From Bdellovibrionota bacterium (GTDB lineage Bacteria > Bdellovibrionota_C > UBA2361 > SZUA-149 > DAOLCO01): a DNA stretch of 34,218 bases. Positions 1,743 through 27,601 of this stretch are shown here, in pieces (position 1 is the stretch's first letter; each line of letters starts with the position of its first letter). The stretch covers positions 1 to 34,218 of the forward strand of contig JBILFC010000001.1 of assembly GCA_044351785.1 (NCBI GenBank), written 5' to 3'. The notes below the pieces were generated by a model that made no database searches, was not told where the DNA came from, and was given only the letters and a program-made list of their open reading frames with translations. A program made the position numbers and the translations under genes.

Positions 1743-4700
1743 ATGCCAAGTTGTATTAGGCTCATCAGTACTCGTTTAATTCTATTATTGTCTTTGATGA
1801 CAATAAATAGCTTTAATGCTGTTGCTGAGGATCAAGAAGTTACTCTATTTAGTCGCACCTTAAAAAATGGTGAACTAAGAGGTGAATCAGCTTTACTTGA
1901 AAAACCAGAAAAGACAGCCGGGATTCTATCAAATTTAATCACTAACACTAAAGTTATAAAAGATAATGGCCCATCATCTAATCGAGTAGATTTAGTATTT
2001 TTAGGCGATGGATATACAACCGGTGACTCTTCAAAGTTCGATTCTCAAGTGGTAAGCATCTCTGATGGTTTATTCCAACAAATGCCATTAAGTGAATATA
2101 AAAACTATTTCAATCTACATCAAGTTTTCTCACCATCAGTTCAATCTGGTATAGACAATGATGGACAACTTGGAATAGATAAAAATACGGTGTTGAATGG
2201 TAAATTTTATTGCCAAGACGTAAAGGAAAATATCTGCGTAGATGTATCTATCGCCTGGGAACTTGCTGCTCAAGCAAGAGACTTTGATCAAATTTCAGTT
2301 TTAGTAAACTCTAGCTCTGATGGGGGAACTGCCTATCCATTTAGCGATATCTCAGTGGTACCAGGAGGAAACGGTCTAGTAGCTAGTAATCTTGCTCACC
2401 AAGTGGGACATAGCTTTGCTAATCTTGCAGATGAATATGACAATGGTAGTTGGCCTACCTACACTGGCTTTGAACCAGCAGAACCAAATGTTTCTGCTCA
2501 AAATACTGAAGCCATGCTCACACAAAAACTTAAATGGCATCAATGGCTAAGCATAGATTCTGGCGCTAACTTTGGTGGAATAATAAATACCTATGAAGGT
2601 GCAATGGGTCATAAATATTCAATTTATAGGCCAACTGAAAACTCTAAGATGAGGAATCTAAATGCTCCATTCAATAACCCATCTATAGAATCTTTTATTA
2701 AAGAAATCTATAAAAAGGTAAAACCTATTGATAATGCAACGTCAGTGGAAACTCCTCTTACTGGTTCATCAGTGATAAGCGTAACCCCCCTTCAACCAAT
2801 CGGTAGAAACTTAACAATTCAGTGGTATGTAGATAACACTCCTATAGCAGGGGCTAATGCTAAAACTTTTAGACCAAATGACTACCCTATAAGTGATGGT
2901 ATGCATGCAATCTCAGTAGAGGTTTCAGATGATACTCCACTTCTAAAAGACGAAGCCTTTAGAACACAGTACATGAAGGAAAAACGCACTTGGAATGTAC
3001 CTATTGATCAAAATGCACCCATCATCACAAAACATCCTGCAAGTGTTTCTGTATTTATTGGAGCGACAACCAATCTATCGGTAACTGCCATTGGCGAAGA
3101 TCTAAAATACCAATGGTTTAAAAACGGCGTTAAAATTGACGGCGCTACTCAAACATCATATTTGACTCCAGGAGCAATAAGAGAAAAAGCTGACTACTAC
3201 GTAGAAGTCTCCAATGTTCAAGGTACCTTAAGAAGCAATACAGCTACTGTAAGTATTAAAAATAGACTACCCGCATATTCAGGTAGCACTTCATTAACTC
3301 TTTCTAGATTAGAAGAAAAAGAAATTGCTTTTGAAATTAACGATGAAGATGGTGACTCTCTATCTTCAGTTTATACAATTGAAGCCGCGACTAATACTGG
3401 CGTAACAGTTTCATTAGCTTCCAAGAGCCTTAAAATTAAAGCTAGCTCTGCTTACCTAGGACAATTTAGTATAAAATTAAATTTTACTGATTCTTATGAC
3501 ACAATTTCTATACCAATCTCGGTGAACGTTGTTAATAATGCTCCGGTCATTGATGCCATAAATGATTTAACTAGACTATGGACTACTGATAAAGCATCGG
3601 TTGAAATACTTGCTAGTGATAATGACAGCATGGACACAGTCAGTCTCTCTGCTAATCTTGCTACAGGATTCTCAGCACCTGTCAGCCTATCTATGAATGG
3701 TAAAGTGCTAAATATCGATCCGCAAGCAGGTTACTATGGTAAATTTAATGTAACGGTTAGGGCGACGGATGGATTTACAAACACATTTAGAACATTTTCC
3801 GTAAACTGGGCAAATGATAGCCCTGTAATAGATCAGGTGGCACCAATCCGCTCGCATTACAAAGTAGATAAAATTATAGTACCGATAAATGCGACCGATC
3901 CTAATGGTGACACATTACAACTTTCTGCTTCTATTTTGCCTATAAATAACCTAGTTACAGCTAGCTTAAGTGGCAAGACTCTTACCATAGATCCTTCCCC
4001 TACATATAGAGGAGCTAGTACTCTTCGTGTTACAGCTAGTGATAGTGCTCTTAGTAGTGTCATGAATACTAGTCTAGAAATTTATAATAATGCTCCAGTT
4101 ATTGCTCCGATTTCTGCAACAAATGTTAATCAGAATAAAAAATCAGTATCAATACCTGTATCAATATCAGACCCCGATCCAGAAGATAGCGCTACTTTAA
4201 CAAGCAGCGTTAGACTTCTTACTTCTGGAGCAAGTGGTGTTCAGGTTAAATTAGAAAATAACAACCTAATAGTCGAATCTAGTCAAAACTTTTCCGTACC
4301 TCTGTTAGTAGAAGTAAAAGCTACCGATGGAGATTTAACAGCAGTAAGAAATGTTTATCTTAGTGTACTTAATACAGCTCCCTTACTAACTAATATAGAT
4401 GAACAATTTATTCATCCTATTAAAGAAGACATAAGAACCATAGATTTAATAGCAACAGACATAGATAATGATAGTATTACGTATACCGCGGAAGTAGTAA
4501 AACCCAATGCCAAAGCCCCTACCCTATCTGTTTCAGGAAATAAATTATCCATCAATACTATCAACGACTTTCTTGGATCATTCACAATCAGAGTTATCGC
4601 TAGTGATGGCTTAAGTGAAGTAGCAAAAACATTCAAAGTCACAACTTATAATACAGATCCCGAGTTAAATGCCATTTGTGATCGTTCTGCACCGGCAACG

Positions 4701-7700
4701 AAGTTTCCAATAGAAATCCCGCTAATCGCATCAGATCCTGACAAAGAAGACTTAACTTTTGAAGGAAAAATTGAAAGAAATTCTTTACCATTTTTACTAA
4801 AGGCTAAATATAACTTTGACGCTATCAGATTTAGACCTAGTAATGGTCTAGGATTAGGTGAAAAGTATGTCAGTGGTTACGAAACAGACCCAGATATTAA
4901 ATTCTGGTACTATATTCTTCCTAATGGGGACCTATATAGGTTAAATAAAACACATAAGGAAAGCCAGTTCCTCCTAAAATTACCTGCAGGATACTATGAA
5001 AATCCCGATATCCTAATAAATGGTGATATCTCTGGAACTATTCTCAATGCTTTCTCAATATCTTTTGAGGGAAGTAAGCTTAAAGTTGCGCTCTCAAGAG
5101 CAGTACAAGGATCTGTTCAAATAAGGGTTAGAGCTAAAGATTACTTCTCATTTAATGAAAAATCTTTCATTCTAACTGTAACAGAAGGAAGATTAAAATT
5201 AGATGATGTTCCCGACATGAACATCCATTGGAAGGAAGAACCACGATCTGGATCATTAATAGCTAAAGATCCAGTAACTGGCTTAACACCAGATGATATG
5301 AGCTACGATGTGGCAGAATTTGACGGTTCTCTTGCAAAAAGTCTAGATGACCAATACAATTTTCATGTATCAAGAAATGATCAATATGATGCACAGATTC
5401 CACCTGATAACTTCACAAATAGAGGTGAGAAATATATTAGAGCTTACAAGATTAGTTATTTAAACAATGTACCTTCATACGCAGGGATTGATGTATTTGC
5501 GATACTTCCAAATGGTGATTTATATTTATCTCCACCAAAGGCTCAAAATACACAATACTACAGTTTAGAAAATGCTACATTAATAGCAGAACTTGATAAA
5601 GTCTATTATAGAGATACATCTTTACTAATCAATGCAGCAAGTGGAGCGGGAACAAATCTTATTATAAACGGAGATAATACTAGCTTCACGGTGGAACAAA
5701 CTCCTGGATTCTTAGGGAAAGTCATCTTAGAAGCAAGAGCATGGAAAGGTATCGCCTCAGACAGTAAAACATTTATTGTTAACATATACGACAATGAACC
5801 TACGCTGAATGTTCCACTTAATTGTGATGAATTTGGCTGCAAGTTAATAAGAAACTGGAAAACAAACGAAATTAGGCTTCCAATCACCCTCAGTGACGTT
5901 GACCCACTTGATAGTGTAACTTCTAAGGCCTTTGAAACGGATCCTTCCTTAAACCCAGCTAATTCAGCTTCTGAATATTCCCTAAAGTGGAATCATAAGA
6001 ATGGCCAATTCGATAGAGATGGCTGGAGAGAAATACATTTTGCAGGAACTTATCAAAACTCAGAAACTGATATCGCTTTAACTACTGATGGGAAATTATA
6101 TAAATGGAATGGTAATCCACAGAATAGCATTCTATTAACTCAAGTTCCTAGTTCATTCCATGAGCTAGGATACACCTTAGATTCTTCTGTCAATACTTCT
6201 AAGCCTAGCTTGTTAAATCATCCCGAAGTAAGAGTTGAAGGCTCTGAATTAGTAATTACCCCTAAAGCAAATACAGTTATAAATTCCGGTATAATAGGAT
6301 GGGCAAGCGACGGAATGAAACGCGGATTCCTCAAATTCCCCGTATTCATAATTAATCAGCAACCTCAAATTGGAGCCATTGCAGATAAAACTGTTCACTG
6401 GAGAGACAACCTCATTACCGAGAATATCTTGGTTAGTGATCCAGATGGAGACACCGTTTCAAACTTGAATCTGACAATCAATCCTATTAGCATTGATCCA
6501 GCTATCGATTATAATCTAACTAACCTAGTTCTTACTTTAAAATCTAAATTTGGATATTTAGGAACCTATTCATCCACAATCTTTGTGACTGATCAGGGTA
6601 ATCTAAGCAGTGCTCGATCATTTAATACTACAGTCTTCAATACTGCTCCAGTTCTAGAATCTATCGGCAATAAAGATATTGATTGGAATATGAATACGTT
6701 AGAAATTCCATTCACGATGAGCGATGCAGATGCTAATGACTCCGATAAGTTAATATCTATGGTATTTAACGGATCTGCTTCTGACTTTACCGATTTCCTA
6801 GTAAATAAGCACAAGTTTACTAAAACTGGAGCAGGTGCTACCAATTCTCTTGGACTATCTGAAGTACACTTCAAAGGTACAGTAGAGAATCAAAGTAGAG
6901 AATTTATAGTATTGCCCTCAGAGGCTATCTACCTTGTGAGTGGTACTAATTTAGAGATTAAAGGATTCCTAGCACCTGGTACATACAGTAACCCTAACAG
7001 ACTATTAAGCATTGTTAATCCGAACTTTGCTCCAAAACATTCTGTAAGCACCGACGGAACAAAAATCATTTTAAGTAAATCATCAGGGCTAACTGAACCA
7101 ATCATAGTTACAGCTTGGGCAACTGACACGATTCAAGCTACTTCTGAAACATTTACAGTAAATATCATAGACAACGCTCCAGTATTACCAGAGCTAGCGA
7201 CAAGCTATGAAAGACATTGGAGACCAGGGCTACTAGAACTTCCTAATTTCCCTTCAATTGACGAAGAAGGTGAAACCATTAATTATCAAGTAACTTCAAG
7301 TCCAGCAGGATTACAACACTCTATTAGCTCTAGTATTCTTTCTGTAAAACCAACTAATGCTAATCAAATTGGAAATTACACTGTAAACATAGTAGCAACT
7401 TCAGGATCTAAATCTTCAAGCAAGTCCTTTAGCTATAACTTAACAAATGGTGCTCCATCAATTGCACCTCTAGGAGCACAGACCGTCGTTGGTTACAAAG
7501 AATCTTACTCTCAACCCTTTACCGCAACAGATCCAAATTCAGATCCTCTAACTTATACTACCAGCCTAGTAGGACCTTCACCATCTAACTTCTTAGTTGC
7601 TGTAGCTGGATCTACGATTAAAGTTTCTCCTAAAACTCCGCTAGCAGGTACTTACACTATAAACCTAAAAGCTTCAGATGGGCCTTCTTCAGCAGATGCT

Positions 7701-10700
7701 TCAACACAAATAATTTTCCAAAATAGAGCGCCAACATTTAATGTTCCGTCAGCGATGGATATCCCATGGAAAACAAAAGTGGGTAGTCAAACTCTAGTTT
7801 TCAGTGATCCTGATGATGACACTCTAACCTTGACCCCTACCATCAGTGATCCTACTGTAGCCACTGCTGTGATAAGCGGAAATAAAATAAATATCGATCT
7901 AAAGAAATATGCTCCAAGTTTTATAGTTAAAATAAGATTAAGCGATGGAGCTAACTCTATAGACAGAGAATTCCCTGTTTCAGTTAGCAATCTTAAACCA
8001 ACTCTAACAGGCTTACCACCAACTAAAGACATACACTGGAATACAAATTCATTTACGCAATCATTCACAGTAGCAGATGCAAACAATGACACTTTAACAG
8101 TTACATCTAAAATACTAAATAACACAGTTCCTGCTAGCGTAACTATTACAAATAGCCTCGCTACTATAGATGTTACAGAAAAGAAAATGGGCGAATTAAA
8201 CTTAAATATAAAAGTTGCTGACGATGTCTCAAGCACTGAAGGCAACATGAAAGTTACCTTTACTAATACAAAACCTAAAATCTCAGAAATTGCTAACCAA
8301 ATTATTTCAACTGGCATAGAAAAGACTCTTGAACTAGAAGCCTCAGACGCCAATAGTGATGAATTAACACTTTCCGCTATAAAAATGTCTTTGGAAGAAG
8401 TTGCGTTTGACCTAGATAAAATGTTTAACTTTGAACAAGGCGAAACCAACTTTGGATTTAATAAATTAGGTAATAACGAAAAATACCTAAGAGGTAGCGA
8501 TCCTGTAAGAAAAACTCCTCTTAATTTTGTTATCTATCCTAATGGCAGACTATATATCTGGACTGGAATATTAACGAATAGCACTTTTTTAGGAAGTATT
8601 CCTACCGAATTGCATGCCAACCCTACTCTCCTTATCAACGCTATTGCTCCAAATGCTTCAAATATTTCTTATACCGCAAGCATAACTGGTTCTACATTGA
8701 AATTAAAAGCAATTAACGACTTTGAAGGAACCTTCTGGATTAGAGCGGCAGCCACAGATACTCAAGAATTAGCACCAATGTATTTTAGAGTTAATTCCTA
8801 TAAGGAAGTTACTTCAGGTGGTGGCACTGATCCAAAAGAGTGCGAAACTAAAGAGACAGAACACGACGGAGAATGCAGTCAATCTGGGAAGTCAATGTTC
8901 ACTGCCGAAGGCAGAATAGGAGATACTGTGACTGGGGCAGGAAATAGAACTTTTGAATTAGATATTGGCAAAAGTACTAGTGGGCCTTTTGCTAGTGGAC
9001 AAACAAGTAATCATATTTGGGTAAGTGGAAAGAAAGAAAGCTTCTCAATAACTTTTGATCCAATTAATAAAGTATGTAATTTTGTATTAGGAGGGAAAAC
9101 CGTAGTATATAAAATTACAGAAGATGTATTCTCTCTTAGTGACATTTTAATAAGAACTAGACGAGGGAATACTCAGTCCAGTATGAAAATTGATTCTCTA
9201 AAAATCAATGGTAAAACAATTTCTAATTCCGTGTACGCTGATGGGAATTCTAACCAAGTGCGAACTCTACAAATTCGTTCAGTGAAGGAACTAAAGGATA
9301 AATTCACCTTAGAGGGTGCTGCTACTATGATATTCTCCTCTGATGTGAAGAATTCAGAACTTGCATTCCAAATATCCTTTACGAAATCAGACAATGCGCC
9401 TGAGACTTGTGAAGATAGCGATGAAGATGATCATGATGACGACGATTCAGATCACGATGATGAAGACGATAATGATGACGATGATTCTAACTCCAGAAAA
9501 GTAAAAATATGTCATTATCCTCCAGGAAATACCTCTAACCCACAGACAATTACTGTTTCTAAGTCTTCATTATCAGCTCACTTAGCACACGGCGATGTGA
9601 TTGGAGAATGTCCAGGCGATCCTCAAGATCCAGGCACGGGTGAAATTTCATGCGAAGCTAAGCAGTTGTTTGCTAGCCCTAACTACACTCTTTGGAATAG
9701 CTTCTTAAATATGATCAATATTCTAGAATTGACTAACTCTACAGCTAACCCAATTCCAGTGAAGATCTCCTTCTTCTCAATATTAGGTGAGCTTGCACAT
9801 GAAAGAACAATAGTTGTCCCAGCGACTAACCAGTTCGACGTTATTATCAATGATTTCCCTGGATTCGTGAAAGATTCCTATGGTGTTGTAAAACTCGAGT
9901 TTACTGGAAATCTTGATGGTAGAATGAGTTTCTATAGACCTACAACTGGTCTTACTTCTTATGACTATGCATATTCAATTCCTTTAGCTGATGCGAATTT
10001 TGGAACAACTGCAATAAGTTTCAATACCTTCCAACCAAGTCAAAAGCCTTCTGAGCTTAATAACTTAGTAGCTAACTGGTTAAGTATAGTAAATCTTGAT
10101 TCAGCGACACAAAAATATAGTGTCTTCACTTATGATATGTCTGGAAAACTTATTCTTAGAAGAGAGCTTGAAATTCCTTCATTCGGAAGAGCCGATGTCG
10201 ATGGTGGCCATGGTCTTGCAGGCCCTAATGTAGTCGGTTACCATAAGGTTATCCCCTACAATGTGACAGCGGAATACATCGCTCAAATAACTAGATTCGG
10301 TGGGAATGCTGCTGCTGGATTTGCCCCTTCAGCATATAAATTTGCCTTCCCATTATCCGCTAAGCTTGGTGCAAGCGATCCTATTTATGTTCCAATTTCG
10401 AATAAATTCGGGGAATCAAATTGGATAGAAGTTGTAAATATTCTTGATCAAACAGTACAAGCTGCAATCAACTACTACTCAATTGATGGTAGGTTACTTG
10501 AATCTGCAGATGCTTACATCCCAGGGAATGCTCAAATACATTTTAATGCTAGTGCTCAATTAGCAAGTGGAGAGACTGGTTATGCCGTAGTCGTTCCAAG
10601 CACTCCATATTCAATTGTTGCTCAAAGTATGGGTTACCTTAGAGAGCAAGCAACTGGCAGCGTAACTTCAGTTTATGGATCTCAAGCTAGAAGAGCTGTA

Positions 10701-11027
10701 CCTTGTGTTCAATCTGGCGCTTACAACTTATATCTAAATATGCAAAACTGGTTACTAGTTGCAAATACTACTAATGACACTATAAAAGCCGTGGTAAAAT
10801 TCACTGGACCTAATCTAGCTAGCCAGAAGTCCCTAACCCTCGCTCCTAGGGCATCTGTTTACCTACCAATTCATGGCAATACGGAAATTGGTGCTAAAGC
10901 AGATACTTATGGACTCATCGCGGTATATCCCGAGGATTCTTCTCTAAGATTATTCTCCGAAGTTATGAGACTTAAGTATAAGGCTGATGGTTCACCTGAC
11001 TTCTCAATGCCAGTCCCAGTTAGATAA
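1743..11027 (+). CDS. Giant (3,094 aa) secreted mosaic surface protein with an M64-like domain carrying HQVGH, Ig-like domain, 15 cadherin-like repeats and a composite C-terminal region
   Basis: Single uninterrupted ORF starting 15 nt after the S8 stop. N-terminal signal peptide (LILLLSLMTINSFNAVA/ED). M64 signature RVDLVFLGDGYT ... LVNSSSDGG ... AHQVGHSFANLADEYD. Ig-like segment KYQWFKNGVKIDGATQTSY...YYVEVSNVQG (~3015-3260). Repeats carry [ST]D[PA][DN]xDxL motifs (3261-8803). C-terminal modules occupy 8804-11024. Confidence 0.9.
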   Translation: MPSCIRLISTRLILLLSLMTINSFNAVAEDQEVTLFSRTLKNGELRGESALLEKPEKTAGILSNLITNTKVIKDNGPSSNRVDLVFLGDGYTTGDSSKFDSQVVSISDGLFQQMPLSEYKNYFNLHQVFSPSVQSGIDNDGQLGIDKNTVLNGKFYCQDVKENICVDVSIAWELAAQARDFDQISVLVNSSSDGGTAYPFSDISVVPGGNGLVASNLAHQVGHSFANLADEYDNGSWPTYTGFEPAEPNVSAQNTEAMLTQKLKWHQWLSIDSGANFGGIINTYEGAMGHKYSIYRPTENSKMRNLNAPFNNPSIESFIKEIYKKVKPIDNATSVETPLTGSSVISVTPLQPIGRNLTIQWYVDNTPIAGANAKTFRPNDYPISDGMHAISVEVSDDTPLLKDEAFRTQYMKEKRTWNVPIDQNAPIITKHPASVSVFIGATTNLSVTAIGEDLKYQWFKNGVKIDGATQTSYLTPGAIREKADYYVEVSNVQGTLRSNTATVSIKNRLPAYSGSTSLTLSRLEEKEIAFEINDEDGDSLSSVYTIEAATNTGVTVSLASKSLKIKASSAYLGQFSIKLNFTDSYDTISIPISVNVVNNAPVIDAINDLTRLWTTDKASVEILASDNDSMDTVSLSANLATGFSAPVSLSMNGKVLNIDPQAGYYGKFNVTVRATDGFTNTFRTFSVNWANDSPVIDQVAPIRSHYKVDKIIVPINATDPNGDTLQLSASILPINNLVTASLSGKTLTIDPSPTYRGASTLRVTASDSALSSVMNTSLEIYNNAPVIAPISATNVNQNKKSVSIPVSISDPDPEDSATLTSSVRLLTSGASGVQVKLENNNLIVESSQNFSVPLLVEVKATDGDLTAVRNVYLSVLNTAPLLTNIDEQFIHPIKEDIRTIDLIATDIDNDSITYTAEVVKPNAKAPTLSVSGNKLSINTINDFLGSFTIRVIASDGLSEVAKTFKVTTYNTDPELNAICDRSAPATKFPIEIPLIASDPDKEDLTFEGKIERNSLPFLLKAKYNFDAIRFRPSNGLGLGEKYVSGYETDPDIKFWYYILPNGDLYRLNKTHKESQFLLKLPAGYYENPDILINGDISGTILNAFSISFEGSKLKVALSRAVQGSVQIRVRAKDYFSFNEKSFILTVTEGRLKLDDVPDMNIHWKEEPRSGSLIAKDPVTGLTPDDMSYDVAEFDGSLAKSLDDQYNFHVSRNDQYDAQIPPDNFTNRGEKYIRAYKISYLNNVPSYAGIDVFAILPNGDLYLSPPKAQNTQYYSLENATLIAELDKVYYRDTSLLINAASGAGTNLIINGDNTSFTVEQTPGFLGKVILEARAWKGIASDSKTFIVNIYDNEPTLNVPLNCDEFGCKLIRNWKTNEIRLPITLSDVDPLDSVTSKAFETDPSLNPANSASEYSLKWNHKNGQFDRDGWREIHFAGTYQNSETDIALTTDGKLYKWNGNPQNSILLTQVPSSFHELGYTLDSSVNTSKPSLLNHPEVRVEGSELVITPKANTVINSGIIGWASDGMKRGFLKFPVFIINQQPQIGAIADKTVHWRDNLITENILVSDPDGDTVSNLNLTINPISIDPAIDYNLTNLVLTLKSKFGYLGTYSSTIFVTDQGNLSSARSFNTTVFNTAPVLESIGNKDIDWNMNTLEIPFTMSDADANDSDKLISMVFNGSASDFTDFLVNKHKFTKTGAGATNSLGLSEVHFKGTVENQSREFIVLPSEAIYLVSGTNLEIKGFLAPGTYSNPNRLLSIVNPNFAPKHSVSTDGTKIILSKSSGLTEPIIVTAWATDTIQATSETFTVNIIDNAPVLPELATSYERHWRPGLLELPNFPSIDEEGETINYQVTSSPAGLQHSISSSILSVKPTNANQIGNYTVNIVATSGSKSSSKSFSYNLTNGAPSIAPLGAQTVVGYKESYSQPFTATDPNSDPLTYTTSLVGPSPSNFLVAVAGSTIKVSPKTPLAGTYTINLKASDGPSSADASTQIIFQNRAPTFNVPSAMDIPWKTKVGSQTLVFSDPDDDTLTLTPTISDPTVATAVISGNKINIDLKKYAPSFIVKIRLSDGANSIDREFPVSVSNLKPTLTGLPPTKDIHWNTNSFTQSFTVADANNDTLTVTSKILNNTVPASVTITNSLATIDVTEKKMGELNLNIKVADDVSSTEGNMKVTFTNTKPKISEIANQIISTGIEKTLELEASDANSDELTLSAIKMSLEEVAFDLDKMFNFEQGETNFGFNKLGNNEKYLRGSDPVRKTPLNFVIYPNGRLYIWTGILTNSTFLGSIPTELHANPTLLINAIAPNASNISYTASITGSTLKLKAINDFEGTFWIRAAATDTQELAPMYFRVNSYKEVTSGGGTDPKECETKETEHDGECSQSGKSMFTAEGRIGDTVTGAGNRTFELDIGKSTSGPFASGQTSNHIWVSGKKESFSITFDPINKVCNFVLGGKTVVYKITEDVFSLSDILIRTRRGNTQSSMKIDSLKINGKTISNSVYADGNSNQVRTLQIRSVKELKDKFTLEGAATMIFSSDVKNSELAFQISFTKSDNAPETCEDSDEDDHDDDDSDHDDEDDNDDDDSNSRKVKICHYPPGNTSNPQTITVSKSSLSAHLAHGDVIGECPGDPQDPGTGEISCEAKQLFASPNYTLWNSFLNMINILELTNSTANPIPVKISFFSILGELAHERTIVVPATNQFDVIINDFPGFVKDSYGVVKLEFTGNLDGRMSFYRPTTGLTSYDYAYSIPLADANFGTTAISFNTFQPSQKPSELNNLVANWLSIVNLDSATQKYSVFTYDMSGKLILRRELEIPSFGRADVDGGHGLAGPNVVGYHKVIPYNVTAEYIAQITRFGGNAAAGFAPSAYKFAFPLSAKLGASDPIYVPISNKFGESNWIEVVNILDQTVQAAINYYSIDGRLLESADAYIPGNAQIHFNASAQLASGETGYAVVVPSTPYSIVAQSMGYLREQATGSVTSVYGSQARRAVPCVQSGAYNLYLNMQNWLLVANTTNDTIKAVVKFTGPNLASQKSLTLAPRASVYLPIHGNTEIGAKADTYGLIAVYPEDSSLRLFSEVMRLKYKADGSPDFSMPVPVR
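3261..8803 (+). repeat. Array of 15 diverged ~90-aa cadherin-like/Ig-like repeats inside the giant CDS; five carry a roughly 75-100 aa insert
   Basis: Recurrent unit boundaries N[NTD]APV[IL]. Acidic motifs SDNDSMD, TDPNGDTL, SDPDPEDS, TDIDNDSI, SDPDKEDL, SDPDGDTV, SDADANDS, TDPNSDPL, SDPDDDTL, ADANNDTL, SDANSDEL. Each unit closes with ...G.F.i.v.a.Dg. The repeats are conserved at protein level only, with no long identical DNA blocks seen. Confidence 0.8.
9411..9485 (+). repeat. GAT/GAC/GAA-rich low-complexity tract encoding EDSDEDDHDDDDSDHDDEDDNDDDD
   Basis: Read codon by codon from 9411: 25 consecutive codons, of which 21 encode D or E, interspersed with H, S and N. Confidence 0.9.
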
Positions 11028-11747: not shown

Positions 11748-11777
11748 GCCGGAGGCTTGCTTCCGGCTTTATTATTT
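11748..11777. terminator. Stem-loop between convergent genes, T-rich on the + strand
   Basis: GCCGGAGG-CTTG-CTTCCGGC (8 bp including one G-U pair, tetraloop) followed by TTTATTATTT. It overlaps the stop codon of the minus-strand gene at 11772. Confidence 0.5.
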
Positions 11778-12662
11778 ATACTTAGAGATCAGCTTTAAAG
11801 CTTCATTATTTAGATCCTTTTCAGACCATCTCATTTCCTCTGATATAGCTGGAACTAATAAGCCTCCTGTCTTGGGTATTCTACTATATAACCGCATAAC
11901 TCCACCTAATCCATACTTCTCTTCAATTGCTGAAAAATATAAAGAGGCCCTAGAGTAATCTTCACCTGATCCACTAAAAGTAAAAACTGTGGGTTGCCTC
12001 TTAAAACTATACTCCGCCGCCATTGCATTTCTTTTCTTTAACTCTCTCGGATTTAAATAACTTGAAAATCCTGCAGCATAAGTCTCGAACCAAGTAGCAA
12101 ATCCTTCCGCCCTCATCCTATCCCCGCCGAATGCATTACCCAATAAAATAAACTCAACCGCATGACCAAGTTCATGCACTAATACCTCAGTTAAATCAGC
12201 ATCTGCTACTTGTGCAGACTTTTTCACTCCACCACAACCTCCAGCAATACGATCTCCTACGATATAAATGTTAGCTGGAGGCGTCATCCATCCAGGATGG
12301 CAATTGGAAATTAACTGCATAGGAATTTCTCCAGCTCTCAATTCCCCACCGATAAAAATCACTTCCCACTTTTGATTAATTAACTGAAGTTGCTTTGGAA
12401 AAGCCGAAGATTTTAACGCTTTACTCACAGTATTAGCAGCATCTACCATCGCCCTACTAGGAGTTCTACCAAATTGCGCCTCTAGTGAACGAGGCCATCT
12501 TAAATTGACAGTGCCAATAGGTGAATTCAGAACTTCACTTCGGACAGATCCCTTTAAAGTAATATCTTCTGGCCTAGCAAGATTATCTGAATTTTGTGCT
12601 TGCACAATGAAAGGCGAGCTAAAATATAAGATAGAAAGAGCAAGTAAGATTATTTTTTTCAT
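11772..12662 (-). CDS. Secreted HExxH zinc-metalloprotease-like protein (296 aa)
   Basis: Signal peptide MKKIILLALSILYFSSPFIVQAQ. The motif VLVHELGHAVEF is followed by RAEGFATWFE, a possible third-ligand Glu (gluzincin-like). Family not assigned. Confidence 0.7.
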   Translation of the reverse strand: MKKIILLALSILYFSSPFIVQAQNSDNLARPEDITLKGSVRSEVLNSPIGTVNLRWPRSLEAQFGRTPSRAMVDAANTVSKALKSSAFPKQLQLINQKWEVIFIGGELRAGEIPMQLISNCHPGWMTPPANIYIVGDRIAGGCGGVKKSAQVADADLTEVLVHELGHAVEFILLGNAFGGDRMRAEGFATWFETYAAGFSSYLNPRELKKRNAMAAEYSFKRQPTVFTFSGSGEDYSRASLYFSAIEEKYGLGGVMRLYSRIPKTGGLLVPAISEEMRWSEKDLNNEALKLISKYK

Positions 12663-13231: not shown

Positions 13232-15679
13232 ATGAAAGTAATCAAGTTTGGTGGCTCTTCCATATCTTCAGCGGAGAATATCACAAAGGTCATAAAGATC
13301 ATTGAATCTGATCTAAGAAAAGGAAGATGTACACTAATCTTCTCAGCCTTTCAAGGCATCACTAACTCACTCTTTAAAGCTGCGGATTTAGCAAAGTCTC
13401 AGAACCAAGAATATTTAAAAGTCATAAAAGACTTAGAAGAAAGACACATCTTAGTCGCAAAAACTCTAATCCCAGAAAAGAATGTAGGAATTACACTTAA
13501 CTTCATAAATGAAAGGTTAAAAGAACTCTATGACATCCACCACGGAGTATTTCTTGTAAAAGAATGTACGCCGAAAATAATGGACTACATAGCTAGTTTC
13601 GGTGAACGACTTTCGACCTATATCATCTCAGAGGTTATTAAAGCAGAAGGTTATGAAGTAAACTACCTAGACGCTAGAGAAGTTATAAAAACAAATAATG
13701 CTTTTGGCAGTGCTCAAGTAGACTTCGCAACAACAAATACTCTTATTACATCCTATTTTAAAAATAATAACGGCATTAAAGTAGCAACAGGATATATTGC
13801 AAGCACTAAAGATGGCGAGACTACGACTCTTGGTAGAAATGGATCAGATTATTCTGGAGCTATTTTCGCAGGTGCATTAAATGCTGAAAGTCTTGAAATC
13901 TGGACTGACACCTCCGGCATCATGACCGCAGATCCAAGGCTCGTATATAAAGCTTTTACTATTCCGCAGCTCACATACAATGAGGCGATGGAGCTATCTC
14001 ACTTCGGGGCCAAGGTACTATTCCCAGCGAGCATGCAACCCGTAATGAAGCAGGGTATTCCGGTTTATATAAAAAACACCTTTGCCCCAGAGCATACAGG
14101 TTCATTGGTAAGTAATAAATCACAAAGCCCTGGATTAATTAAAGGTATATCTTCGCTTACTGATATCTGTTTAATTAACATTCAGGGTACTGCACTCATG
14201 GAAGTTGTTGGCATGAGCAGGAGATTCTTTGGAGCGCTCGCTGATAGTCAAGTAAATATAATTCTAATCAGTCAGGCTTCTTCAGAACACAGTATTTGCG
14301 TTGCAATATCGGGTAAAGACTCAGAGCGTGCAGTTAAGGCCATTGAAATAGAATTTGCAAATGAGATCTCAGCTGGTTCTATGGACCCAGTAATGGTTAA
14401 ACAAAATATGGCTGTTGTTTCCATAGTTGGGGAGAACATGCGTCAGCATCCAGGCTCTAGTGGAAGAATGTTCCAAGCACTAGGAAGAAATAATGTAAAT
14501 GTTTTTGCTATTGCTCAAGGTAGCTCCGAATTAAATATTTCAGCTGTAGTTTCCAATGACGATCATCAAAAAGCCCTTAATGCTTTACATGAGGCTTTTT
14601 TCCTCTCTGAATTTAAAGTACTACACATGTTTCTGATTGGTAAAGGCTTAATAGGTTCAGCTCTTCTAAAGATGATTGGCGAACAATTAAACAAGCTAAA
14701 AGCAGAACAAAACCTTGAAATTCAAATTCATGGCATCGCAAACTCCAGATTTATGTTGTTTAACGAAGATGGCTTTAACCTAAATGATGATTTAACTTTA
14801 GATAGTTCCGCTGAACAATATCAATTAAATAAATTTCTTAGAAGAATGTTTGAAATGAACTTTTCAAACTCCGTACTAGTTGATTGTACTTCAAGTGAGG
14901 AAGTCGCTGAATCTTATGAGTCCATACTAGAAGCTAACATTTCTATTGTTACTCCTAATAAAAAGGCTAATTCTGGCTCATATGAAAGGTTTGAAAAATT
15001 ACATAATATCGCCTTAAAACGAGGCTGTAGATTCCTATACGAAACGAATGTCGCAGCAGGACTTCCTGTTATTAGCACTCTTCAAGATTTAGTCTTAAGT
15101 GGAGATAAAATTAGAAAAATTGAAGGGGTCTTAAGTGGTTCTGTAAATTTTATCTTTTCTAATTTTGAAAACGGAAAACTATTTAGTGATATCGTAAAGC
15201 AAGCGAAAGAAAAGGGATATACAGAGCCTGACCCTAGAGATGATCTAAGTGGCATGGATGTAGCTAGGAAAATTTTAATCCTAGCTAGAGTAGCTGGGGT
15301 AAAACTTCACTTGGAGGACATTTCTATTAATAGCCTTGTACCGAAAGAAGCTGAAAGCGCATCTACTTATAAGGAATTCATGAGCATACTTTCAGCCCAT
15401 GATAACTCTTTTACCTCACTTTTAGCAGACGCTAGTAGTAAGAATGAAAAACTTAGATTTGTAGCTAGTCTTGAAAATGGCCATGCTAATGTTAAGCTAA
15501 AAACCGTAGACTCCGCACATCCTTTCTATTCATTAAAGGGCAGTGACAATATGATTTTATTCACGACAGAAAGATATAGCGAGTTTCCAATGGTAATTCG
15601 AGGTCCTGGGGCTGGGGCAGAAGTAACCGCTGCGGGAGTATTTGCAGATATTATAAGAGTGGGAAATTATCTAAGATAG
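13232..15679 (+). CDS. thrA: Bifunctional aspartokinase / homoserine dehydrogenase
   Basis: N-terminus MKVIKFGGSS with the kinase motifs TLGRNGSDYSGA and DPR. ACT-type regulatory region (VSIVGENM..., NISAVV). C-terminal homoserine dehydrogenase motifs (LIGKGLIGSALL, YETNVAAGLPVI, GVLSGSVNFIF, EPDPRDDLSGMDVARK). Confidence 0.95.
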   Translation: MKVIKFGGSSISSAENITKVIKIIESDLRKGRCTLIFSAFQGITNSLFKAADLAKSQNQEYLKVIKDLEERHILVAKTLIPEKNVGITLNFINERLKELYDIHHGVFLVKECTPKIMDYIASFGERLSTYIISEVIKAEGYEVNYLDAREVIKTNNAFGSAQVDFATTNTLITSYFKNNNGIKVATGYIASTKDGETTTLGRNGSDYSGAIFAGALNAESLEIWTDTSGIMTADPRLVYKAFTIPQLTYNEAMELSHFGAKVLFPASMQPVMKQGIPVYIKNTFAPEHTGSLVSNKSQSPGLIKGISSLTDICLINIQGTALMEVVGMSRRFFGALADSQVNIILISQASSEHSICVAISGKDSERAVKAIEIEFANEISAGSMDPVMVKQNMAVVSIVGENMRQHPGSSGRMFQALGRNNVNVFAIAQGSSELNISAVVSNDDHQKALNALHEAFFLSEFKVLHMFLIGKGLIGSALLKMIGEQLNKLKAEQNLEIQIHGIANSRFMLFNEDGFNLNDDLTLDSSAEQYQLNKFLRRMFEMNFSNSVLVDCTSSEEVAESYESILEANISIVTPNKKANSGSYERFEKLHNIALKRGCRFLYETNVAAGLPVISTLQDLVLSGDKIRKIEGVLSGSVNFIFSNFENGKLFSDIVKQAKEKGYTEPDPRDDLSGMDVARKILILARVAGVKLHLEDISINSLVPKEAESASTYKEFMSILSAHDNSFTSLLADASSKNEKLRFVASLENGHANVKLKTVDSAHPFYSLKGSDNMILFTTERYSEFPMVIRGPGAGAEVTAAGVFADIIRVGNYLR

Positions 15680-20346: not shown

Positions 20347-21594
20347 CTACCTACAATACTCATAGGCCGGTATCATTAAAATAGTCTGCTTACCAGAACC
20401 CTTAACTCCCCCTGATTCATTTGCAGTAACAATGGTTAACTTAGCCTCCGAGAACTTAGTGCTAGCAATCTCTAACGCACGAACTTCTCGCTCTTTTGTT
20501 TCCATATCAGAGATATTTAAACATACTTGTATTAACTGTGAAGTCACATGACCATCTCTCACCAGAAAATCAATTTCCTTTCCATCATCTAAGCGGTGAT
20601 AGAAAATAGAAGAATCACTTTTATAACCACTCCTTCTAAGATGCAAATATACTGAATTTTCTAATTGCTTGCCAAGCACAGGTAGGGAACTTAAATTCAG
20701 TGCACTAATTATCCCAGTATCTATGAGATACGGCTTACGCTCCCCCTTAATCCTTTCTTTTATCTTGTGAGAAAAGTTATGAGTGGTTTCTACTAAGTAG
20801 GCTTCTTCCATAAATCGCAGATAGTTTTCTATGGTTGTTGCGCTAGGCGTTGAATCTAAAGCCTTAGATAATGCTCGAGCACTGGTTCGAGCTGAAACAT
20901 TACCCACTATTAAAGACAACGTATTAGTTAAATAAAAAGGATTACGAATTTTTTTCCTTCGCACTAGATCCTTCAAAATTACAGAATCATATAAAGCTTT
21001 TAAATATGTCTTATAATCTACCGAAGGTTCAAACAATACTTCAGGATACCCACCCCGCTCCAGATAAAACTGATAACTGTCCCATGATCTCTGCCGATTG
21101 GTCGCATCAATATATTCTGTATAGGAAAATGGAAGTAGCTCTATCGCAATATGTCGACCAGTAAGTGCGGTCGCCAACTCAGATCCCAGAAGCTTTGCAT
21201 TCGATCCAGTAATAACTAAGTTATATCCCCGTCTGTGGAGTTTATTTATCAGTGTCTCCCATTCAGGAAAATCTTGTATCTCATCTAGATACCAATACTG
21301 CGCGTCCGGATAAATCTCATGAGCAGTATCAATTATTGAATCTCCTGAAGATTTCTGAAACAACTCTTCTTCAAAATTCAGATAAGCAATTTTTTTATCT
21401 TCTAATATCTTCTGAATGAGCCTAGACTTACCTGCCCTCCTTGGACCTAGGACAATTTTTATCAATGAATTATCAAGCGCCTCAACCAACTCAGCTTCTT
21501 TGGTCCTTATAAAATACTTTTTCTTTGCGAAGCTCAGGAATTCCTGCTTTTGCTTTGAAAGAATGTCTGAAAGTGAGTAAGTAGTTGTAATCAT
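20347..21594 (-). CDS. AAA+ ATPase of the COG1373 / DUF4143 type (415 aa)
   Basis: Walker A GPRRAGKS, Walker B YWYLDEIQ, and a C-terminal region typical of the AAA_14 + DUF4143 architecture (by recollection). Confidence 0.8.
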   Translation of the reverse strand: MITTTYSLSDILSKQKQEFLSFAKKKYFIRTKEAELVEALDNSLIKIVLGPRRAGKSRLIQKILEDKKIAYLNFEEELFQKSSGDSIIDTAHEIYPDAQYWYLDEIQDFPEWETLINKLHRRGYNLVITGSNAKLLGSELATALTGRHIAIELLPFSYTEYIDATNRQRSWDSYQFYLERGGYPEVLFEPSVDYKTYLKALYDSVILKDLVRRKKIRNPFYLTNTLSLIVGNVSARTSARALSKALDSTPSATTIENYLRFMEEAYLVETTHNFSHKIKERIKGERKPYLIDTGIISALNLSSLPVLGKQLENSVYLHLRRSGYKSDSSIFYHRLDDGKEIDFLVRDGHVTSQLIQVCLNISDMETKEREVRALEIASTKFSEAKLTIVTANESGGVKGSGKQTILMIPAYEYCR

Positions 21595-24024: not shown

Positions 24025-24603
24025 ATGTACAATTTACTGCTCAACAAGTTCTCAGAACAACATTTTCTTAAACAATTAACACCATTATCAAAAACTACTA
24101 AGGTAATAACCTCAGACACATCTGGCAGGGGAGTAATTGCAACGATAGATATCCCAGCAGGCACTCTCCTAGGAATATATCCAGGTGCACATATAAGCTA
24201 CAAAGAGTTTTTAGAAAAAGAACAATTTGTAAGTCGCTCTGTAAAATCTGCCTATATGTTCTCTAAAGATATCATTATTGATCCAACAGATATGTTTGGT
24301 TACCTAACCGACACTCCAGATCACCGCATAGCTCTAATTAACGAGGCCAGCCCCTCACAACAAACAAATATCGCAGCAATTAATACAAGAAGAAATGTTT
24401 GGTATATTAGCATTCAAGACATTAAAGCTGGGGAAGAATTATTTACTAACTACGGCAACCAATATAAAAGAAATTATTCTTCCTCTGATGCAGGTAATCA
24501 AATTTTTAGCGATAATCAAATTAAAATCTTACAAGGTTTGGCAGCTAAATATCTTTGGACGAAAAGAGGTATCGGTGAATTGTTAATAATATTATTAAAT
24601 TAA
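24025..24603 (+). CDS. SET-domain protein (putative lysine methyltransferase, 192 aa)
   Basis: GRGVIATIDIPAGTLLGIYPG (GxG plus beta-hairpin), YMFSKDIIIDPT, ALINEASPSQQTNI (in place of the RFxNHSCxPN motif) and IKAGEELFTNYG (the post-SET ELxxxY motif). Confidence 0.7.
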   Translation: MYNLLLNKFSEQHFLKQLTPLSKTTKVITSDTSGRGVIATIDIPAGTLLGIYPGAHISYKEFLEKEQFVSRSVKSAYMFSKDIIIDPTDMFGYLTDTPDHRIALINEASPSQQTNIAAINTRRNVWYISIQDIKAGEELFTNYGNQYKRNYSSSDAGNQIFSDNQIKILQGLAAKYLWTKRGIGELLIILLN

Positions 24604-25753: not shown

Positions 25754-25776
25754 GGCGCCTTGAAATCCAAGGCGCC
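25754..25776. terminator. 9-bp GC-rich stem-loop between convergent genes
   Basis: GGCGCCTTG-AAATC-CAAGGCGCC, flanked by AAA on the left and GATCTTTCT on the right. Confidence 0.6.
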
Positions 25777-25809: not shown

Positions 25810-26763
25810 CTAGAATCCGCTATACCCAGAACACTCTCCTTGATAACTCACATTAATACCGGCCTCTGTAGCTTTACACTCATTAAAATAGGTCTGTGCA
25901 TTTGCGCCACATACCGGTGCATATACTCGAGAGCATGTCGGAGCCCCACATTCACCCTCGTATAATACTGTAGTTCCAGCTGCTCTAGCATAGCAAGTGT
26001 TACCATAAGTTTCACCATCTGCACCACAGACAGGCACAAATTCCTGCGAACAGATAGGAGCAGGGGCAGACTCCTGTCTGCAAATCCCTTGATGAGCGAC
26101 TCCCACCCCCGCTTCGGCAGCATGACAATAACTATCATATGTTTTGCCATCGACACCGCAAACCTTTCCAATAACTTGTATACAGTAAGGCCCATCAGTT
26201 GACTCCTGCTTGCACTCACCTTCATAAGAGACAGTAGCGCCAGCATTTTTAGCTTCACAAGAATTACTATAGGTCTTACCATCTGTCCCACAAACAGGCT
26301 TAATCCACTGTGGGCATATATCAGATCCTCCCGTGCTAGGAGAATCTGGCCTTTTACTATTATCAATATTATTATCCACACTCGTACGTACATCTTCAGG
26401 CGTTTTTCCTACTACCACATCTATCTGAGCTGGTTTTGAATTATCAACTAAATTTGTTACAGATACAGTTGTGTTTACAGCAGGACCATTAAATATAATT
26501 ACTGCCTCTTGACCTACCTCACTAGCAATCTCAAATTTGCCCTCAGAATCTGTAATAGTAGTATCGCCAGTTTCTTCGACCGTAACGGAAACATTAGGTA
26601 TCGGCTTTTGATTAGAATCTACGACAGTCCCTTCAAATTGTCTTAAATTTACAGACGTATTATCTCCACCCGTCCCAGAAGTACCACCTCCACATGCCAT
26701 GATTGACACAATTAAAAACCCTAAAAATACTTTGGAACAAACCTTACCAACAAAACAATTCAT
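25810..26763 (-). CDS. Lipoprotein with a CarboxypepD_reg-like beta-sandwich and four tandem atypical Kazal-like protease-inhibitor domains
   Basis: Lipobox SIMAC (Cys24). FEGTVVDSNQKPIPNVSVTVEETGDTTITDSEGKFEI matches the carboxypeptidase-regulatory-like pattern. There are four copies of C-x7-C-G-x-D/N-G/A-x-T-Y-x3-C-x-A-x2-A-G-x9-C. Confidence 0.85.
   Translation of the reverse strand: MNCFVGKVCSKVFLGFLIVSIMACGGGTSGTGGDNTSVNLRQFEGTVVDSNQKPIPNVSVTVEETGDTTITDSEGKFEIASEVGQEAVIIFNGPAVNTTVSVTNLVDNSKPAQIDVVVGKTPEDVRTSVDNNIDNSKRPDSPSTGGSDICPQWIKPVCGTDGKTYSNSCEAKNAGATVSYEGECKQESTDGPYCIQVIGKVCGVDGKTYDSYCHAAEAGVGVAHQGICRQESAPAPICSQEFVPVCGADGETYGNTCYARAAGTTVLYEGECGAPTCSRVYAPVCGANAQTYFNECKATEAGINVSYQGECSGYSGF
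25831..26316 (-). repeat. Four Kazal-like units (aa 150-184, 194-228, 238-272, 276-311)
   Basis: CPQWIKPVCGTDGKTYSNSCEAKNAGATVSYEGEC; CIQVIGKVCGVDGKTYDSYCHAAEAGVGVAHQGIC; CSQEFVPVCGADGETYGNTCYARAAGTTVLYEGEC; CSRVYAPVCGANAQTYFNECKATEAGINVSYQGEC. Period is 44/44/38 aa. Confidence 0.85.
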
Positions 26764-26794
26764 AACTACTCCTATTTATACAACTAACATTTCT

Positions 26795-27601
26795 CTAATT
26801 CATTTTTAATAGCTCTGACCAGCTAAAGCTTCCCAGAACTACCCTATTTCTATTAGACTTATTTACCGATGGATTAAAATCTTGATCGAACTGACTTAAG
26901 TAAGCAGAAACTTTTTCATGAAATAAAGTGCCCTCACTGAGTAACCACTTCTTAATTTCTTCGATATTCTCATCAGGTATACCATCATATTCTGTTCTAA
27001 GATGAAGATTCCGAATGCCTTCACCTGAAAATATATTTTCCTCTACAGCTTCTAAAAGATCTCGCATATCTCTAGATAAACCTTTTAAAGATTCTTCTGG
27101 ATTTTTTACAGTGCTATGAAACCTAGCAATTAACTTTAATCCCTTCTCTGTTTTTTCTACGTAAGATAATCTCTTTAGCTCAAATAAAATCGTGTAGGGA
27201 TTTAAATCCTTACTAACTGATTGGACCAAGTCACTAAACTCACTTTGTTTACTTCCAATTGCAAGCACTCTAGGCTTACCACTAGCTAAACTAAACCGAG
27301 GATCATTTCTCCACTGAGATATTACTCTCGTTAGTACACTACTTGGTTCAACCTTTAACTCTTTAGAATTATAAATAAGACTTACTTCTCTTCTTTGAAT
27401 CCCTGTAATGGCAGATATTTTACTGATGTTGGCATCGATTGCCTGACGCTTTAACTCTTCTTCCGCAATTTCAACAAAAGTTCTCTTAAGAACTTCTATA
27501 AAATCTTGATACTTCAAAGAATGACGTAGACAAATCCGCACTAAAGGAGAAATTAACTTAGCTAACGCGTTTAGTACAATTTTAGAAGATTCCTTTGCCA
27601 T
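26795..27601 (-). CDS. Hypothetical protein with a probable helix-turn-helix (268 aa)
   Basis: The segment ISKISAITGIQRREVSLIY looks like an HTH. The rest is unassigned. Confidence 0.55.
   Translation of the reverse strand: MAKESSKIVLNALAKLISPLVRICLRHSLKYQDFIEVLKRTFVEIAEEELKRQAIDANISKISAITGIQRREVSLIYNSKELKVEPSSVLTRVISQWRNDPRFSLASGKPRVLAIGSKQSEFSDLVQSVSKDLNPYTILFELKRLSYVEKTEKGLKLIARFHSTVKNPEESLKGLSRDMRDLLEAVEENIFSGEGIRNLHLRTEYDGIPDENIEEIKKWLLSEGTLFHEKVSAYLSQFDQDFNPSVNKSNRNRVVLGSFSWSELLKMN

Follow-up and report, generated by a model that had tools for sequence, protein, structure and literature searches.

The 34,218 nucleotides (nt) analysed here, called the window throughout, are positions 1 to 34,218 (forward strand) of contig JBILFC010000001.1 in assembly GCA_044351785.1, which derives from a Bdellovibrionota bacterium. 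On the reverse strand of the window, a gene at 25810..26763 encodes a protein of 317 amino acids (aa) in which a lipobox Cys24 is followed, in order, by a Gly-rich linker, a CarboxypepD_reg beta-sandwich, a disordered spacer and four Kazal units. Kazal inhibitors are textbook eukaryotic proteins. An earlier reading of the same DNA, referred to here as the original prediction, had described the product as a lipoprotein with four Kazal-like units behind a lipobox and a CarboxypepD_reg domain, and the open reading frame (ORF), a regular-expression (regex) search and Pfam agree with that description. The features of the gene are listed below.

25810..26763, reverse strand: whole coding sequence of the 317-aa lipoprotein (ORF listing; Pfam; ratio of nonsynonymous to synonymous substitution rates, dN/dS, against the variant L025)
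26692..26763, reverse strand: lipoprotein signal peptide, aa 1-24, with the lipobox S-I-M-A-C24 (read off the sequence)
26665..26691, reverse strand: Gly-rich linker GGGTSGTGG, aa 25-33, immediately past the predicted lipidated Cys (alignment A4; family conservation)
26410..26646, reverse strand: CarboxypepD_reg-like (transthyretin-like) beta-sandwich, aa 40-118 (Pfam; AlphaFold2, AF2; Foldseek)
26317..26409, reverse strand: low-complexity spacer, aa 119-149, predicted to be disordered (AF2 predicted local distance difference test score, pLDDT, below 50)
26212..26316, reverse strand: Kazal unit 1, aa 150-184, CPQWIKPVC..., P1 Gln152, P15' Asn167 (regex; LDTI alignment)
26080..26184, reverse strand: Kazal unit 2, aa 194-228, CIQVIGKVC..., P1 Gln196, divergent (regex; residue frequencies in 117 units)
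25948..26052, reverse strand: Kazal unit 3, aa 238-272, CSQEFVPVC..., P1 Gln240, P15' Asn255 (GmSPI-2 alignment; Foldseek)
25831..25935, reverse strand: Kazal unit 4, aa 277-311, CSRVYAPVC..., P1 Arg279, P15' Asn294 (regex; Pfam stretches)

The N-terminus, MNCFVGKVCSKVFLGFLIVSIMAC24, has by eye a K-containing n-region and a hydrophobic core ahead of the lipobox. It agrees, again as judged by eye, with the Prosite PS51257-type lipoprotein signal, which we take to consist of a charged n-region, a hydrophobic core and a lipobox of the form [LIVMFWSTAG]2-[LIVMFYSTAGCQ]-[AGS]-C, with the Cys within the first ~35 residues, and the protein is predicted to be a lipid-anchored lipoprotein. When the gene was compared with a variant from another sample (L025, 92% nucleotide identity), dN/dS was 0.14 over the whole gene and 0.15 over the Kazal array, and the P3-P3' residues were identical in all four Kazal units; the low ratio indicates that the gene is real and under purifying selection. 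Behind the linker, PF13715 (CarbopepD_reg_2) and PF13620 (CarboxypepD_reg) both match aa 44-116 above their cut-offs. An AF2 model of the protein, built from 6 sequences, places seven strands in aa 40-118 (pLDDT about 77-85), and in Foldseek this beta-sandwich resembled, though weakly, the SusC NTE domain 9hfj and the transthyretin-like domain of carboxypeptidase N, 2nsm.

The spacing C-x7-C-x10-C-x14-C occurs in exactly four units, and all 16 Cys that follow the lipobox Cys24 fall within them. Each unit contains the Kazal core C-x7-C-x6-Y-x3-C, with the Tyr at unit position 16, and the terminal Cys6. Both Pfam families of the fold match in 4 stretches, Kazal_1 (PF00050) with E 3.1e-27 and 94.8 bits (cut-off 21), Kazal_2 (PF07648) with E 7.2e-22 and 77.7 bits (cut-off 22.8); at the level of sequence the protein carries Kazal domains (MEROPS I1) far beyond chance. 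Typical Kazal domains have six Cys joined in three disulfides (1-5/2-4/3-6), whereas each unit here has four, and alignment to LDTI and ovomucoid identifies Cys1 and Cys5 as the absent pair. By this alignment the units are two-disulfide Kazal variants that are predicted to keep the classical C2-C4 and C3-C6 bridges and are without C1-C5, and the loss of one disulfide per unit, which the original prediction had proposed, is borne out. The same prediction had gone on to equate the units with the so-called 'atypical' Kazal domains, and this equation does not hold. The 'atypical' class, which includes domains of LEKTI, Phytophthora EPI1a and ShSPI, is without Cys3 and Cys6 (PMC1236909, PMC6950245), so that its members resemble the window units in having four Cys but have lost the 3-6 bridge. 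Membership of this C3-C6-less class was accordingly rejected: the window units retain Cys3 and Cys6 (C158 and C184 in unit 1) and have instead lost Cys1 and Cys5.

Two small inhibitors of solved structure provide a closer comparison. GmSPI-2, silk protease inhibitor 2 of the moth Galleria mellonella, has four Cys, disulfides 5-24 and 13-39 (first with third, second with fourth), the counterparts of classical C2-C4 and C3-C6, and a 7-residue reactive loop (PMC4169406). This protein (4hgu, 2m5x) shares with the window units the C-x7-C-x10-C-x14-C spacing, the P1 register and 43-54% identity, and the Cys of the window units are presumably paired in the same way. It differs in being a single-domain secreted insect protein with Thr at P1, whereas the window protein is a bacterial lipoprotein with four units behind a beta-sandwich and P1 residues Gln, Gln, Gln and Arg. 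LDTI (leech-derived tryptase inhibitor; 1an1, 1ldt), a second proven inhibitor to which the units are 37-54% identical, is likewise a short non-classical Kazal protein with the common C2-C3-C4-C6 spacing, but it keeps a third disulfide, C4-C29, for which the window units have no Cys (LDTI Cys29 corresponds to Asn173 in unit 1). Two-disulfide Kazal domains can be stable inhibitors, and EPI1a inhibits both subtilisin A and the tomato subtilase P69B (PMC1236909).

With moderate model confidence, AF2 gives a strand-strand-helix-strand (E-E-H-E) secondary structure in every Kazal unit. [quoted passage not shown] The Kazal fold (hairpin, helix, C-terminal strand) thus appears, at the same moderate confidence, to be present in the modelled units.

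Kazal domains of bacteria have been annotated before, and the named bacterial matches in our searches came from Myxococcota, Polyangiaceae, Fibrobacterales, Alphaproteobacteria and Peribacteria metagenome-assembled genomes (MAGs). The annotated proteins of Myxococcota, Polyangiaceae, Fibrobacterales and Ca. Peribacteria MAGs resemble the window protein in their tandem x7/x10/x14 units, many of them with four Cys, placed behind signal peptides or lipoboxes. They differ from it in having neither the CGGGTxGTG linker nor the CarboxypepD_reg scaffold. Four homologues share the whole architecture (P0006, P0010, P0011 and P0072; 38-44% identity), and all of them have the lipobox and the invariant GGGTSGTGG linker. 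An identity matrix of Kazal units showed no diagonal dominance, so that the units of different homologues cannot be matched one to one.

If P1 is placed two residues beyond the first Cys of a unit, the four P1 residues are Q152, Q196, Q240 and R279. The register is supported because two solved inhibitors align to the units without gaps in a search of PDB sequences: LDTI aligns to unit 1 with its Cys6-Pro-Lys8 (Lys8 being P1) on C150-P-Q152, and GmSPI-2 (2m5x/4hgu) aligns to unit 3 from end to end (E 1.4e-9) with its P1 Thr7 on Q240. In GmSPI-2 itself, Thr7 likewise stands two residues beyond the first Cys, and the protein is a potent inhibitor of both subtilisin and proteinase K (PMC4169406). 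The register proposed earlier and its three Gln residues are therefore retained, whereas the Arg that had been given as R278 is R279, unit 4 reading C277-S278-R279.

Position-specific variability was calculated over 117 distinct four-Cys units taken from the top 120 homologues. Among the 35 unit positions P1 is the most variable (3.76 bits), P1' and P3' reach 3.16 and 3.04 bits, and the scaffold positions P7, V8, G10, D12, T15, Y16, N18 and G33 all remain below 0.6 bits. Hypervariable contact residues on a constant scaffold are a long-known pattern of Kazal inhibitors. P1 also varies between the homologues of the same architecture, which have A, A, Q and A (P0006), A, T and G (P0010) or L and E (P0072). 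The conserved contact residues of Kazal inhibitors include the P3 Cys and the P15' Asn (PMC1236909); the former is present in all four window units and the latter in three (N167, N255 and N294). In unit 2, Ser211 stands in place of the P15' Asn and Lys200 in place of the near-invariant P4' Pro, and since the loop-stabilising Asn and the Pro are both absent, unit 2 may be weak or inactive as an inhibitor.

Canonical binding can accommodate a P1 Gln, to judge from the Gln18 (P1) variant of ovomucoid bound to SGPB (PDB 2sgq). By analogy with characterised inhibitors, the Gln152, Gln196 and Gln240 heads are probably aimed at subtilisin-like or broad-specificity enzymes; subtilisin-like targets are plausible from the likeness to GmSPI-2, with its P1 Thr, and to EPI1a. 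A trypsin-like target is, on similar grounds, plausible for the Arg279 head.

The immediate surroundings of the Kazal gene contain three further features.

26795..27601, reverse strand: DUF6502 (PF20112) gene, 268 aa, 31 nt upstream of the Kazal gene (Pfam E 6e-31)
26769..26773, reverse strand: Shine-Dalgarno-like AGGAG, 6 nt 5' of the ATG of the Kazal gene (motif reading)
25754..25776, no strand assigned: GC-rich hairpin with a 9-bp stem between convergent genes, 34 nt past the Kazal stop codon, a candidate bidirectional terminator

L007 and L010, the loci of P0006 and P0072 respectively, share no other synteny with the window, and in both a DUF6502 gene again lies directly upstream of the Kazal lipoprotein gene. 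When DUF6502 itself was used as the seed, a metagenome scan together with homologue look-ups yielded 16 distinct loci with readable downstream sequence, and at 11 of these the next gene on the same strand encodes a CarboxypepD_reg lipoprotein with the motif C-GGG(T/S)xGTG; the lipoprotein gene usually overlaps DUF6502 by 4 nt or starts within 31 nt of it. The loci with this arrangement include the window, L007, L010, L013, L015, L016, L018, L019, L023 and L024. One of the remaining five has such a lipoprotein gene in convergent orientation and four have none of this kind. We use the combination of a lipobox Cys, GGG(T/S)xGTG and CarboxypepD_reg directly downstream of DUF6502 as a working, non-curated family definition, and the window protein has all of its elements.

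An exhaustive search in which the first 125 aa of the protein served as query returned 643 representatives at E ≤1e-3; among the best 150 of the 643, 76 are lipoproteins of less than 500 aa with the CGGGTxGTG linker. A lipobox Cys is shared family-wide. In a sample of 55 family members, conservation reaches at least 90% at C24, G25-G27, G30 and T31, and alignment A4 shows no variation over G25-G33; 53 of the 55 contain a CarboxypepD_reg domain. Kazal domains were found in five (the window protein, P0006, P0010, P0072 and P0437), in arrays that range within the family from 2 to at least 7 units, with seven Kazal_2 stretches in P0437. DUF5666 occurs in two of the sampled proteins, TSP_3, Dockerin_1 and Dioxygenase_C gave single additional matches, and the rest match only Pfam families that also overlap the CarboxypepD_reg region of the window protein. 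Since Kazal domains occur in only five of 55 members, the scaffold is the conserved part and the array an optional module added at its C-terminus. By sequence, then, the N-terminal half of the window protein belongs to a large CGGGTxGTG-CarboxypepD_reg lipoprotein family that follows DUF6502. A scan of GTDB genomes with the Kazal protein gave generic CarboxypepD_reg matches only (Flavobacteriia, Cytophagia, Blastocatellia and others) and no close relative.

No signal peptide was found in the DUF6502 protein, which is predicted from its model to be cytoplasmic and mostly helical with a winged-helix-like element; the AF2 model (pLDDT 89.2) consists of helices and one beta-hairpin. Foldseek gave no significant match to this model, and its weak matches, which serve as a hint only, were all helix-turn-helix or winged-helix DNA-binding proteins. 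A profile of the family searched against PDB sequences gave a match at chance level (E 0.5), and our literature searches found no paper on DUF6502. One Logan contig encodes a protein of 465 aa (P0317) in which DUF6502 is fused in frame to the CarboxypepD_reg part, with no signal peptide or lipobox; this is either a genuine fusion, which would back a functional link between the two, or an artefact of assembly or frameshift.

Taken with the analogy to characterised Kazal inhibitors, these observations make it reasonably likely, in our judgement, that the window protein is an envelope-tethered, multi-headed canonical serine-protease inhibitor. In the mechanism that we propose, the CarboxypepD_reg beta-sandwich would act as a stalk, and the flexible linker and the disordered spacer of about 30 aa would carry the four heads off the lipid anchor. 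The heads would be substrate-like, tight-binding inhibitors of the standard mechanism, each presenting a C-x-P1 loop to a serine protease. Held at the membrane, whether in the periplasm or at the surface, they could shield envelope proteins from secreted serine proteases of the cell's own or of foreign origin. Bdellovibrionota are a protease-rich and often predatory lineage, and a tethered inhibitor of this kind would fit such a lineage. The DUF6502 protein might serve as a co-transcribed cytoplasmic DNA-binding regulator, which is a guess from its modelled fold. The proposed inhibitor would be a functional analogue of ecotin, a periplasmic serine-protease inhibitor of Gram-negative bacteria (PMC9904509). 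Ecotin (MEROPS I11) resembles it in the proposed role alone, that is, protection of the envelope or periplasm against exogenous serine proteases, and is otherwise an unrelated fold, a soluble dimer with dual-site binding and no sequence kinship to the window protein.

Several observations weigh against inhibition as the function. Our literature searches found no bacterial Kazal protein with a measured activity, and at the loci examined no protease gene is consistently found beside the Kazal homologues. A trypsin-family (S1) gene lies 0.3-1.2 kb upstream of DUF6502 at L018 (2550..4706) and L023 (1062..1886), where the lipoproteins have no Kazal domain; either chance or a loose tie of the cassette to secreted serine proteases could explain this. 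Most members of the lipoprotein family are without Kazal domains, which by sequence gives the cassette a core role other than protease inhibition. The AF2 model of the window protein has a mean pLDDT of 59.6, a low overall confidence, and unit 2 departs from the inhibitor consensus in the manner described above. As for placement, the sequence predicts lipid anchoring but does not specify a membrane or a face of it, so that of the surface tethering in the original prediction the anchor is retained and the surface location is left without support from the sequence.

The main competing explanation is that the units are non-inhibitory binding or structural modules of the follistatin, agrin, SPARC or RECK type, that the core function of the family is unrelated to proteases and that the C-terminal module binds a ligand or partner. 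To our knowledge, the Kazal-like modules of follistatin and agrin are not protease inhibitors, and both the PDB sequence search and the Foldseek fold search place follistatin, FSTL3, agrin and RECK with the top matches, which is a further point against inhibition. The roughly 90% of sampled family members that carry other C-terminal domains or none, and the missing P15' Asn and P4' Pro of unit 2, also favour such modules. The high ranks of follistatin-type proteins, however, are sums over many repeats, and the best gap-free, full-length matches of single units are GmSPI-2 and LDTI. The window units are moreover minimal Kazal cores of 35 aa without the EGF-like subdomain of follistatin; the reactive-loop length, the P3 Cys and the P15' Asn are retained in three of the four, and P1 is the most variable position. 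On this evidence we regard non-inhibitory modules as unlikely, and we favour the tethered inhibitor.

A separate question is the origin of the array, for which the original prediction had taken the elevated GC content as a hint of transfer from a eukaryote. The Kazal part has a GC content of 0.47 against 0.377 for the window, and multi-Kazal proteins of insects, molluscs, crustaceans and algae are among the matches. At third codon positions (GC3), however, the Kazal part has 0.32, inside the range of 0.25-0.36 of the other genes of the window, and the excess lies at the first and second positions (0.54 each) because of the Gly, Ala, Cys and Pro content; as GC3 is ordinary, the higher GC is no evidence of transfer from a eukaryote. 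The closest units are metagenomic or bacterial ones with four or five Cys (60-71% identity), four-Cys units occur in a single alga among the eukaryote-named matches, and at least 5 clusters with a mutual identity of 38-45% carry Kazal arrays on this bacterial lipoprotein scaffold. A recent acquisition from a eukaryote is thus very improbable, and the suggestion is rejected. Ancient transfer in either direction is possible, and domains of 35 aa are too short to resolve it.

The window also encodes proteins of the protease type, which are listed here.

3..1727 (ORF listed as 243..1727), forward strand: S8 subtilase (Pfam E 2e-58), frame open from base 3
1743..11027, forward strand: M64 giant of 3094 aa with the motif HQVGH
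11772..12662, reverse strand: 296-aa protein with a clear signal peptide and an HELGH motif

Because its frame is already open at base 3, the S8 gene is truncated by the end of the contig, and 243 is not its true start. The motif HQVGH indicates that the M64 domain is catalytically dead. The 296-aa HELGH protein has no Pfam or NCBIfam match and may, from its motif and signal peptide, be an unclassified secreted zinc metalloprotease. The protease set of the original prediction is confirmed in so far as the S8 subtilase, the dead M64 domain and the HELGH protein with a signal peptide are all there, but the S8 gene, which it had treated as a neighbour of the Kazal gene, lies 24 kb away with housekeeping genes between the two. 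This distance bears on a more specific form of the inhibitor proposal, in which the lipoprotein is a dedicated self-protection inhibitor against this S8 enzyme. The presence of a clear S8 gene on the same contig would suit it, as would the fact that two Kazal domains with two disulfides, GmSPI-2 and EPI1a, are directed at subtilisins. Yet thrA is among the genes that separate the two loci, the S8 gene adjoins the gene of the M64 giant instead (which follows 16 nt downstream of it on the same strand), gene calling at L007 and L010 placed no S8 gene near the Kazal homologues, and the conserved partner gene is DUF6502. We consider a dedicated S8 inhibitor improbable.

The C-terminal part of the M64 giant recurs elsewhere. 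A Bdellovibrionota MAG (L018) encodes a 2885-aa M64 giant whose final 292 aa (9976..10851) share 70% identity with it. Over about 300-440 C-terminal aa (especially 9525..11027 of the window), the giant of the window also shares 34% identity with the end of a trypsin-domain protein whose gene lies directly upstream of DUF6502 in the same MAG (L018, 3381..4694), and 27.5% with a 2576-aa protein beside DUF6502 in L020 (2855..4204). Neither Pfam nor NCBIfam matched this region, and NCBIfam searches of it and of the unannotated neighbours gave no match to a type IX secretion system (T9SS) or other sorting domain. Judged from these alignments, the region may be a lineage-specific sorting or anchoring domain of large secreted proteins that recurs near the cassette.

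Among the other genes of the window, ThrA (13232..15679, forward strand) has its best named matches in Cyclobacteriaceae of the Bacteroidota (60-64%), whereas DUF6502 (26795..27601, reverse strand) and the giant (1743..11027, forward strand) are closest to the Bdellovibrionota MAG of L018, the sole phylum-level name among the relatives of DUF6502. This conflict reflects either horizontal transfer of thrA or markers shared across phyla; on balance, and not with certainty, the markers point to a Bdellovibrionota-like diderm bacterium. Shine-Dalgarno motifs are rare in the window and likewise rare in Bdellovibrionota loci, and the Bacteroidota -7 promoter motif TAnnTTTG is not enriched in the window (37 matches, 38.8 expected). 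At 24025..24603 on the forward strand, two genes away from the Kazal gene, lies a gene for a SET-domain protein of 192 aa (Pfam SET E 4e-13, PRDM2_PR 2e-8); SET methyltransferases are uncommon in bacteria. An AAA_14/DUF4143 ATPase gene (20347..21594, reverse strand) is flanked by small ORFs that weakly match a CopG antitoxin and DUF4926 (JGI gene calls), and together they may form a small mobile or toxin-antitoxin-type islet amid housekeeping genes.

A broader interpretation of the locus can be offered tentatively, and we hold it to be rather doubtful. DUF6502 and the CGGGTxGTG-CarboxypepD_reg lipoprotein would form a two-gene envelope module with an exchangeable C-terminal payload (Kazal arrays, DUF5666, other domains or none) and DUF6502 as its dedicated regulator. 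The module, so far undescribed, would be present in a Bdellovibrionota-like lineage as well as in other uncultured bacteria. The Kazal form would then be the first canonical serine-protease inhibitor of bacteria to be tethered to a membrane, and it would protect the envelope of a possibly predatory bacterium that secretes proteases against that bacterium's own S1 and S8 enzymes.

As the Kazal domain has already been annotated in bacteria, its occurrence here is not new; what is new is that Kazal heads are combined with a beta-sandwich stalk and a lipid anchor inside a DUF6502 cassette. The pairing of DUF6502 with a CGGGTxGTG lipoprotein of swappable C-terminus, on which we found no literature, offers a tangible starting point for work on a domain of unknown function. 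The locus is at the same time a compact and testable case, with four minimal two-disulfide heads, an unusual Gln at P1 and a lipid anchor. If active, the protein would be a source of very small, stable inhibitor scaffolds and an example of a diderm bacterium that guards its envelope from serine proteases by means of a tethered inhibitor.

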